Below are positions 34,783 to 37,830 of a stretch of 64,000 nt of DNA, one piece after another. This stretch comes from a virus, in IMG/VR virus record IMGVR_UViG_3300009103_000003, positions 96,001 through 160,000 of that record. One strand, 5' to 3'. The translations under genes and the position numbers were made by a program. Below the pieces are notes generated by a model. It did no database searches. It saw only the letters and a program-made list of their open reading frames with translations, and had not been told where the DNA came from. Numbering within the stretch: position 1 is the stretch's first letter; the number at the start of each line of letters is the position of its first letter.

Positions 34783-35292
<510 letters not shown>

Positions 35293-37220: not shown

Positions 37221-37296
37221 TGGTGGGCCCCCTGGGATTCGAACCCAGGACCTACCGGTTATGAGCCGGGGGCTCTAACCACTGAGCTAGAGGCCC
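37221..37296 (-). tRNA. tRNA with CAU anticodon, most likely tRNA-Ile2
   Basis: GGGCCTC TA GCTC AGTGGTTA GAGC...CCGG CTCATAA CCGG...A CCA; G1-C72 pair (not initiator); Ile-like D-arm. Confidence 0.85.
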
Positions 37297-37306
37297 ATAC
37301 AAGAAT

Positions 37307-37392
37307 TGGTGGGGCTGGAGGGACTCGAACCCTCAATCCCATAGGGCGTCAGATTTTAAGTCTGATGCGTATACCAGTTCCGCCACAACCCC
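37307..37392 (-). tRNA. trnL: tRNA-Leu(UAA), long variable arm
   Basis: GGGGTTG...TCAGA CTTAAAA TCTGA...GGTTCGAGTCC...A CCA. Confidence 0.95.
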
Positions 37393-37735: not shown

Positions 37736-37830
37736 TGGTAGGCCCGGTGGGATTTGAACCCACGACCTTGTGCTTATCAGACACTACACCGGGTATAAGC
37801 CGGTTGCTCTAACCACTGAGCTACGAGCCT
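37736..37830 (-). tRNA. Atypical 95-nt tRNA-Ile with two anticodon-like arms (UAU and GAU)
   Basis: AGGCTCG TA GCTC AGTGGTTA GAGC A ACCGG CTTATAC CCGGT GTA GTGT CTGATAA GCAC AAGGTC GTGGG TTCAAAT CCCAC CGGGCCT A CCA. Confidence 0.85.

Follow-up and report, generated by a model that had tools for sequence, protein, structure and literature searches.

The window analysed here is a stretch of 64,000 nucleotides that corresponds to bases 96001-160000 of a viral record of 181,199 bp, which has direct terminal repeats and is rated complete. Four tRNAs are encoded in this phage genome, namely an Arg(UCU), a Leu(UAA), a CAU and an Ile(UAU) tRNA, the last of which is present in one full-length copy and carries two hairpins between its D and T arms, hereafter referred to as arm 1 and arm 2. 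AUA accounts for 21% of the isoleucine codons of the phage (11.0 per 1000 codons). The phage has few PHROG matches, and its best cultured relatives are Mycobacterium, Vibrio and Pseudomonas phages with around 33% protein identity. A scan for promoters and terminators yielded nothing informative. The tRNA genes of the window and the parts of the tRNA-Ile(UAU) gene are the following:

37736-37830, minus strand: whole tRNA-Ile(UAU) gene with encoded CCA (ARAGORN, RF00005 and direct reading)
37824-37830, minus strand: 5' strand of the acceptor stem, AGGCUCG, forming 7 bp with 37740-37746, one of them G-U
37806-37821, minus strand: D arm with a 4-bp stem (GCUC/GAGC) and the loop AGUGGUUA (sequence reading, Rfam and family alignment)
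37805, minus strand: A26, a single nucleotide 3' of the D arm (sequence reading)
37788-37804, minus strand: arm 1, the decoding anticodon arm, ACCGG/CUUAUAC/CCGGU, with a 5-bp stem (anticodon placed by Rfam and ARAGORN)
37785-37787, minus strand: linker GUA between arm 1 and arm 2 (sequence reading)
37770-37784, minus strand: arm 2, GUGU/CUGAUAA/GCAC, with a 4-bp stem, a 7-nt loop with central GAU and a flanking A.A mismatch (sequence reading and covariation)
37764-37769, minus strand: tail of A plus AGGUC, which reads like an ordinary 5-nt variable loop of class I (sequence reading)
37747-37763, minus strand: T arm, GUGGG/UUCAAAU/CCCAC, 5 bp (sequence reading, Rfam and family alignment)
37736-37746, minus strand: 3' strand of the acceptor stem (37740-37746), A73 (37739) and CCA (37736-37738) (sequence reading)
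37307-37392, minus strand: tRNA-Leu(UAA) (ARAGORN and Rfam)
37221-37296, minus strand: CAU tRNA of the Met or Ile2 type (ARAGORN and Rfam)
34783-34859, minus strand: tRNA-Arg(UCU) (ARAGORN)

The gene at 37736-37830 is called by ARAGORN as a tRNA-Ile(tat) of 95 nt on the minus strand. It reaches 64.4 bits against the Rfam family RF00005, whose gathering score is 29, and the match spans model positions 1-71 and thus the full length of the model; its membership in the tRNA family rests on the cloverleaf, on the score above the gathering threshold and on the agreement of ARAGORN. An insertion of 20 nt is assigned to the variable region by the Rfam alignment, giving a variable region of 24 nt that includes the second hairpin, and all five helices are retained in the thermodynamic fold. 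No other Rfam family gave a significant match in the tRNA region, and neither group I intron nor archaeal bulge-helix-bulge features were found at the insertion; the extra 20 nt are a simple hairpin and a linker. The loop of arm 1 contains the anticodon UAU together with U33, A37 and C38, and the loop of arm 2, CUGAUAA, is fully canonical, with U33 and A37 present. The core is of the G15-C48 type with a body like that of tRNA-Ile(GAU), and the minor isoleucine determinants of E. coli are found as C-G at 4-69, U-A at 12-23 and C-G at 29-41 of arm 1. A preliminary description of the locus, made from the letters alone, had noted all of these arms and had equated the second loop and the AGGTC that follows it with the anticodon loop and the variable loop of tRNA-Ile(GAU); its coordinates and sequences proved correct throughout on direct reading, and the likeness to tRNA-Ile(GAU) holds for the window gene. 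The CAU tRNA of the phage shares 89% identity with the five-arm tRNA over the D arm and arm 1.

Searches of the cultured-phage collection, E. coli genomes and plasmids gave no match over the full length of the window tRNA, and an exact 30-mer across both loops had no match in the viral contigs. Pattern searches, however, extended the five-helix layout to another 92 distinct genes with 54 distinct second arms, whose sources are bacterial chromosomes, viral contigs and cultured phages of Synechococcus and Acinetobacter; these sequences are related by descent, so that their number overstates the count of independent events. It is near certain that the window gene and the five-helix family are real, and since the layout recurs in complete genomes of cultured phages and bacteria, two tRNA genes joined by mis-assembly are excluded. 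The cultured carriers include the Synechococcus phage SynMITS9220M01 (95 nt) and the Acinetobacter phage vB_AbaS_qsb1 (88 nt), whose genes are labelled simply as tRNA-Ile in GenBank, and the Synechococcus phage DSL-LC02 is a further cultured system. In a slice of the viral collection, about 62 ordinary class I tRNA-Ile(UAU) genes were counted versus four to six five-arm genes, and 20-odd genes of the same slice have a third architecture without a D arm; the extra arm is one option and no necessity for phage UAU tRNAs. Extra variable hairpins were also observed in phage tRNAs of other isotypes, where they end in tetraloops and show no 7-nt anticodon-like loop.

The first search pattern imposed both loops and the T arm and led to about 15 more five-arm genes from unrelated viral contigs. 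Since both loops were imposed by this pattern, two further scans were carried out, each of which was blind to one loop. The first of these was blind to loop 2 and required a T arm at a distance of 26-40 nt from a UAU loop; it gave 26 distinct long tRNA-Ile(UAU) genes called by ARAGORN, and 25 of them possess a 7-nt hairpin loop. In 23 of the 26, the stem has at least 3 bp and the 7-nt loop is centred on GAU, while shuffled variable regions predict 0.32, and the variable arms of control Leu, Ser and Tyr tRNAs from the same loci have such a loop in one of 58 cases. The second loops obtained in this way are CAGAUUA, CUGAUUA, UAGAUAA, UAGAUUA, UAGAUUG, UAGAUCG and CUGAUAA. One of the 26 long genes, L083, is of the same lineage type and has a long variable region without GAU, which indicates that loss of GAU is possible but rare. 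In the second scan, which was blind to loop 1 (YWGAUWA between a D-stem strand, set off by a gap, and a T arm), UAU occupied loop 1 of every non-redundant two-hairpin match (38 clean matches and around eight in a shifted register), and no other anticodon was found in loop 1 among these matches; the remaining matches were ordinary tRNA-Ile(GAU) genes with a chance match upstream. GAU in arm 2 is under selection and is linked to UAU in arm 1. The suspicion that two isoleucine triplets would hardly meet in one gene by chance was thereby borne out.

The architecture is also supported by covariation. From 28 full-length members in an unfitted MAFFT alignment, RNAalifold derives five helices and no others, with compensatory changes in 22 of 25 pairs. 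All seven acceptor pairs and all five pairs of arm 1 covary across the family, and both stems of the 7/5 acceptor/T arrangement have covariation support. For arm 2, 55 distinct 17-mers including that of the window were compared; G, A and U form the only invariant columns in this set, for which a 7-nt GAU-centred loop was the selection rule. The four stem pairs are paired in 95.5% of cases and all four show compensatory changes, with 63 double changes versus 13.9 in shuffles and a covariation score of 0.92 versus 0.215 in shuffles and 0.07-0.22 in slid controls; the selection imposed pairing of the inner three pairs, but not covariation itself. In L009, the nearest relative of the window gene, arm 1 is identical, and arm 2 (GCGU/GCGC) is set apart by a compensatory exchange of U-A to C-G. 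Of the 54 distinct second arms, 36 have a stem of 4 bp, which in most cases is flanked by A.A, A.G or U.G, and eight have one of 5 bp. The linker between the two arms is 2-4 nt long in 52 of 54, and the 3' tail measures 5-6 nt in 49 of 54 and often has the sequence of an ordinary variable loop. Judged by these features, arm 2 and its tail resemble an entire anticodon arm that ends in the natural 3' junction; the natural 5' junction, the single nucleotide 26, is kept by arm 1. Two additional contacts of arm 2 were considered and rejected: a GAU triloop closed by pairing of positions 33 and 37 has no support, because all four A/U combinations are common, and for a pairing of GAU with the T loop the complementary AUC is not conserved in the family alignment.

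The two loops differ in what they preserve. Loop 1 reads NUUAUNN in all 91 parsed members, with U33 in 90 and A37 in all 91. Arm 2 has A at position 33 in 37 of 54 distinct arms and U or C at position 37 in 31 of 54, and U37 is found in about half of the second loops. The letters that are kept in arm 2 are the anticodon triplet that is read by IleRS and A38, and positions 32, 33 and 37, which carry more weight for ribosomal decoding, drift. As loop positions 33 and 37 vary, arm 2 would provide no decoding anticodon, and family-wide it does not appear to be built to decode. A73 is present in all 91 members, and the pairs 4-69 and 29-41 vary across the family.

Decoding of AUA by UAU creates a problem at the step of aminoacylation. 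A73 and the anticodon are strong isoleucine identity determinants, and t6A37 is a determinant for bacterial-type IleRS (PMC9976931). A UAU variant is charged poorly by E. coli IleRS, which is relieved by the substitution W905R (PMC3575796), and bacterial IleRS2 has a dedicated G34 pocket and a stringency even above that of type 1 (bioRxiv 10.64898/2026.02.03.703510). Thus, a UAU decoder faces a real charging problem. The window tRNA has UAU and C38 in its decoding arm, and the letters GAU, A37 and A38 in arm 2. In E. coli, A38 is a determinant for IleRS. If the determinants are provided by arm 2, arm 1 is expected to be free of their constraint, a prediction that was tested at position 38. Among 71 ordinary class I tRNA-Ile(UAU) genes of viruses, 44 have A38 and seven C38, whereas of 42 viral five-arm genes, 28 have C38 and 12 have A38 in arm 1; the Fisher test gives p = 4e-10 for C38 and p = 9e-4 for A38, both uncorrected for relatedness, and arm 2 carries A at position 38. 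The modification t6A37 is impossible in many arm 2 loops owing to U37. It is likely that the five-arm tRNA is charged with isoleucine.

Five-arm genes are not restricted to phages. A scan of one bacterial genome per species identified carriers among Actinomyces chromosomes, Acidobacteriota tRNA arrays, Planctomycetota, Ruegeria and others. Many bacterial matches turned out to be ordinary tRNA-Ile(GAU) genes whose acceptor stem starts with GGGCUUAUAGC; they were betrayed by a match span of 60 nt and were discarded. In the order that contains Actinomyces, six of 301 sampled genomes carry a five-arm gene, all of them closely similar, and one of the six has a compensatory change in arm 2 (GUGU/ACAC versus GUGC/GCAC). 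TilS was not found above the curated cut-off in any of nine Actinomyces carriers, but was present in 55 of 59 non-carriers (from a sample of 61 genomes of the same order) and in all bacterial controls; the absence from the nine carriers may go back to a single ancestral loss and would then represent one event rather than nine. In the TilS-negative non-carriers G033, G046 and G062, two of which are highly fragmented assemblies, no UAU tRNA was found by pattern or BLAST. A. timonensis has 52 tRNA genes, of which only the initiator and the elongator tRNA-Met have the anticodon CAU and one is tRNA-Ile(GAU), and a five-arm Ile(UAU) of 93 nt is the only tRNA able to read AUA. The IleRS of this species belongs to type 2, and the Actinomyces enzyme is devoid of the zinc-binding domain context. 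In 400 kb of Actinomyces sequence, AUA has a frequency of about 0.76 per 1000 codons, and the orthologue residues at 23 such codons, a small sample from these 400 kb, are Ile in eight, Val in four, Ala in four, Leu in two and Ser in none, which points weakly to isoleucine.

As the only AUA reader in TilS-less Actinomyces, arm 1 has to be present and functional in the mature tRNA, and it is in all likelihood arm 1 that reads AUA throughout the family. A role that is peculiar to the conflict between phage and host is unlikely, since the gene is the sole AUA decoder in Actinomyces chromosomes. The five-arm family explains how Actinomyces does without TilS. Actinomyces has an IleRS of the eukaryote-like type, as do the TilS-less Bifidobacterium and Neorickettsia, for which this type is noted by Taniguchi et al. 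(PMC3575796). Should the eukaryote-like IleRS2 of Actinomyces accept UAU directly, the mimic may be unneeded there.

It is very probable that arm 2 is kept by selection for a job tied to the five-arm tRNA. That this job is recognition by IleRS is what we infer from the kept letters, with a confidence slightly below even. Arm 1 would then be the ribosomal reader of AUA, thereby giving the phage an AUA decoder that is independent of host TilS, and arm 2 would act as a surrogate anticodon arm, with a stem of about five layers, a 7-nt loop containing G34-A35-U36 and A38, and a normal 5-nt variable loop after it, which would offer IleRS the determinants that are absent from the UAU loop. The preliminary description had proposed, as one of three models, a UAU decoder whose variable arm presents GAU to IleRS. 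GAU and UAU are indeed tied to each other, as seen in 55 distinct arms and in the scans, and this model is the best supported of the three, but its literal form is unlikely for reasons of geometry: a class I synthetase comes in along the D-arm side, and a static variable arm would point away from it and lie far from the anticodon-binding domain. The junction of the five-arm tRNA is nearly symmetric, with 1 nt, arm 1, 2-4 nt, arm 2 and 5-6 nt, so that each of the two hairpins might take the stacked position beneath the D stem. A swap at this junction would be the most economical mechanism: with arm 2 stacked, GAU would be read by the enzyme, and with arm 1 stacked, UAU would be read by the ribosome. 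Neither state could miscode, since both triplets mean isoleucine. A conformational swap that serves charging only is attractive; that IleRS reads GAU on arm 2 and the ribosome UAU on arm 1, with the hairpins swapping under the D stem, is nevertheless a tentative and rather doubtful proposal when taken as a whole.

Arm 2 might instead be read by a partner other than IleRS, such as a modification enzyme, a phage or host protein, or, if it serves as a decoy, an anticodon nuclease aimed at tRNA-Ile(GAU). GAU is selected, yet nothing names its reader, and a position in the variable arm suits proteins that approach from the variable side; extra variable hairpins are likewise borne by phage tRNAs of other isotypes, although the tetraloops of those hairpins are unlike the 7-nt anticodon-like loop of arm 2. 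We consider such a partner unlikely, as the arm is kept in the chromosomal sole AUA decoders of Actinomyces, which argues for an ordinary role in translation, and as the kept letters G34, A35, U36 and A38 are those that IleRS reads.

The preliminary description had also considered a switch between two decoders, in which either arm enters the A site, so that UAU would read AUA and GAU would read AUC and AUU. The window gene and its subfamily invite this reading, since they have the perfect tRNA-Ile(GAU) loop CUGAUAA with U33 and A37, a normal variable loop follows arm 2 as its tail, and no miscoding would arise from two isoleucine triplets. Across the family, however, the switch is disfavoured: most arm 2 loops have A33 and/or U37, which are incompatible with the U-turn and with the purine-37 rule of decoding loops, the stem of arm 2 is usually only 4 bp long, and hosts are already rich in tRNA-Ile(GAU), as exemplified by A. 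timonensis. Dual decoding is thus quite improbable. A similarly low probability is assigned to the view that the anticodon arm was duplicated long ago and that arm 2 is an inert remnant of this event, with a structural role only and with a GAU that persists by ancestry. A single common ancestor of all members is possible, and most phage UAU tRNAs function without arm 2; on the other hand, stems, acceptor arms and loop positions 32, 33 and 37 have freely diverged, yet G-A-U is invariant in the 55 arms, and loss of GAU is as rare as one long gene in 26 (L083).

A substrate of LeuRS or SerRS that resembles class II tRNAs, with AUA being read as leucine or serine, could account for the long variable region; A73 is also the discriminator of tRNA-Leu, and UAU tRNAs with a variable arm have precedents (PMC5389517 and PMC3333845). 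This explanation is very improbable in view of the 7/5 rather than 8/4 arrangement of acceptor and T stems, of A73 instead of the G73 of bacterial tRNA-Ser, of the G15-C48 core in a tRNA-Ile(GAU) body, and of the orthologue residues at AUA codons in the small Actinomyces sample. We know of no bacterial enzyme that excises such an arm, and a precursor from which one arm is excised, the third model of the preliminary description, or an assembly artefact that fused two tRNA genes has a negligible probability, given that no supporting evidence was found, that the 92 further genes come from independent metagenomes, cultured phages and complete chromosomes, that the region is free of group I intron and bulge-helix-bulge features, and that excision of arm 1 would strip TilS-less Actinomyces of its AUA reader.

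How AUA can be read as isoleucine and AUG not be misread, with an IleRS that checks base 34, is a long-standing problem of the genetic code; it is known to be solved by lysidine, agmatidine, pseudouridine and inosine in eukaryotes, and by an altered IleRS in Mycoplasma. If recognition of arm 2 by IleRS holds true, a spare copy of an accepted anticodon arm would constitute a further solution on the side of the tRNA, by which phages and TilS-less bacteria would decode AUA without lysidine and without an altered IleRS. It would amount to a natural uncoupling of the anticodon recognition by a synthetase from codon reading; to our knowledge, there is no other natural case in which the elements read by the synthetase and by the ribosome are located on two anticodon-type arms. 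The family shows what some large phages bring along for the translation of AUA-rich genes, and it might serve as a template for orthogonal tRNAs in which the anticodon can be changed while charging is kept. The proposal is directly testable, as cultured carriers exist (vB_AbaS_qsb1, SynMITS9220M01, DSL-LC02 and Actinomyces species).

A full-text literature search, which included few subscription journals, returned no description of a tRNA with a second anticodon-like arm; several known systems nevertheless share individual features with the five-arm family. The nearest of them are the class I tRNA-Ile(UAU) of TilS-less bacteria, the allo-tRNAs with UAU and the nematode nev-tRNA-Ile(UAU), each of which has a defining trait that is absent from the five-arm family. 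In class II tRNAs (Leu, Ser and bacterial Tyr), an extra helix is likewise located between the anticodon and T arms and is placed in the variable region by gene finders. The class II arm joins the T stem after 1-3 nt in standard numbering, and the control arms from the same loci mostly have loops of 3-6 nt. The five-arm hairpin, unlike these, has a 7-nt GAU loop, a stem of four to five layers and a tail of 5-6 nt, and it stands in a tRNA with the isoleucine anticodon UAU and A73. Allo-tRNAs, which are found in bacteria and phages, possess a long variable arm, and UAU is among their commonest anticodons (Mukai et al. 2017, PMC5389517). They have 8/4 or 9/3 branches and a Ser- or Ala-type identity that is independent of the anticodon, whereas the five-arm family has a 7/5 arrangement, A73 and an Ile-type body. 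The nematode nev-tRNA-Ile(UAU) combines UAU with a long variable arm in a manner similar to the five-arm tRNA (Hamashima et al. 2012, PMC3333845); however, it is eukaryotic, is charged with leucine via its class II architecture and has an unrelated sequence context, and the abstract of that paper mentions no GAU loop.

The usual system of bacteria and T4-type phages, tRNA-Ile2, whose CAU anticodon is converted to lysidine by TilS, does the same job of reading AUA as isoleucine. It needs the TilS of the host, and the modified base is a determinant for IleRS, whereas the five-arm tRNA would need no lysidine. A tRNA-Ile(UAU) that is independent of TilS has been described for M. mobile, and similar ones for lactic acid bacteria, Bifidobacterium and Neorickettsia (Taniguchi et al. 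2013, PMC3575796). The five-arm tRNA resembles the M. mobile type in that UAU is located in the canonical anticodon arm, AUA would be read without lysidine and A73 is present, and its Actinomyces homologues alone decode AUA in a tilS-less genome. The tRNA-Ile(UAU) of M. mobile is reportedly an ordinary class I tRNA; the five-arm tRNA differs in its variable region, which comprises 24 nt in the window gene and contains an extra arm of 19-21 nt with GAU, in place of a 4-5-nt variable loop. The answer of M. mobile to the charging of UAU is Arg865 of its IleRS, the effect of which is mimicked by W905R in the E. coli enzyme (PMC3575796). This comparison suggests that M. mobile solves the charging problem on the side of the enzyme, and that the five-arm design is a solution on the side of the tRNA.

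In the family of tRNA-Ile(UAU) genes that share the five-helix layout of the window gene, in which the UAU anticodon arm (arm 1) is accompanied by a second hairpin with a loop centred on GAU (arm 2), position 72 of the acceptor stem was assessed using the family alignment A2 and 91 parsed members. U72 is present in 54 of the 91 members and forms a G1.U72 pair in 48 of them and an A1-U72 pair in five, one of which is the window gene. A G1.U72 wobble topping the acceptor stem looks unusual, and it may be part of the identity set of the five-arm family.

Several variants of the layout were found. In one subfamily (L028, L052, L056, L068, L079, L102 and L269), the stem of arm 2 is extended to 5-7 bp and its loop reads UAGAUAA or CAGAUAA. 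ARAGORN either does not call these genes or assigns them a 4-base anticodon. Any count of the family that relies on gene finders will be too low. In a six-helix variant, the UAU arm is separated from the GAU arm (loop CUGAUUA) by an additional small hairpin whose loop is GAAA. Three identical long tRNA-Ile(UAU) genes (L083, L113 and L118) possess a 20-nt variable region without a GAU loop; this gene is the sole clear exception among the long genes called by ARAGORN in the scan that asked nothing of the second loop. Phage UAU tRNA-like genes also occur, abundantly, in a third layout of around 77 nt.

L040:861-919 (+), six-helix variant of the five-arm layout
L031:5395-5471 (+), example of the third layout
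L026, L031, L035, L038, L041, L043, L054, L061, L069, L072 and many more, loci with the third layout

In genes with the third layout, the acceptor stem is 7 bp long, the D arm is missing from its usual site, a 3-bp helix (CYC/GRG) encloses the UAU arm, the variable loop is replaced by a small hairpin whose GG loop is conserved, and a normal T arm is followed by A73. They lack the GAU loop, are not called by ARAGORN and reach an Rfam tRNA score of just 29.3 bits.

At least three of the four tRNAs of the phage read A-ending codons (AGA, UUA and AUA), each of which is used around 11-12 times per 1000 codons in the phage.

34783-34859, tRNA-Arg(UCU)
37221-37296 (-), CAU tRNA, especially 37254-37289
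37307-37392, tRNA-Leu(UAA)
37736-37830 (-), five-arm tRNA-Ile(UAU)

Over the region of the D arm and arm 1, the CAU tRNA shares 89% identity with the five-arm tRNA, from which it differs at base 34 (C versus U) and base 38 (A versus C). Rather than a Met tRNA, it may be a paralogue of the Ile2 type that requires lysidine; if so, it would be a second reader of AUA, and the phage would possess two AUA routes.

Extra hairpins in the variable region are also found in normally class I isotypes of phage and tRNA-array tRNAs, namely Asn GUU, Arg ACG and UCU, Cys GCA, Asp GUC, Thr UGU, Gln UUG and Lys UUU.

L005:2259-2346, extra-hairpin tRNA
L070:2502-2590, extra-hairpin tRNA
L109:45-133, extra-hairpin tRNA
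L093:4532-4622, extra-hairpin tRNA
L012:2906-3003, extra-hairpin tRNA
L285:3681-3770, extra-hairpin tRNA, and others

An 89-nt tRNA-Gly(UCC) (L030:4956-5044, (-)) has an 18-nt variable region starting with UCAGAUAAGG, which contains GAU but forms no hairpin. The loops of the extra hairpins in the other isotypes comprise 3-6 nt, are frequently GNRA-like and in no case look like an anticodon loop. Variable regions with an extra arm seem to be common in mobile tRNA genes.
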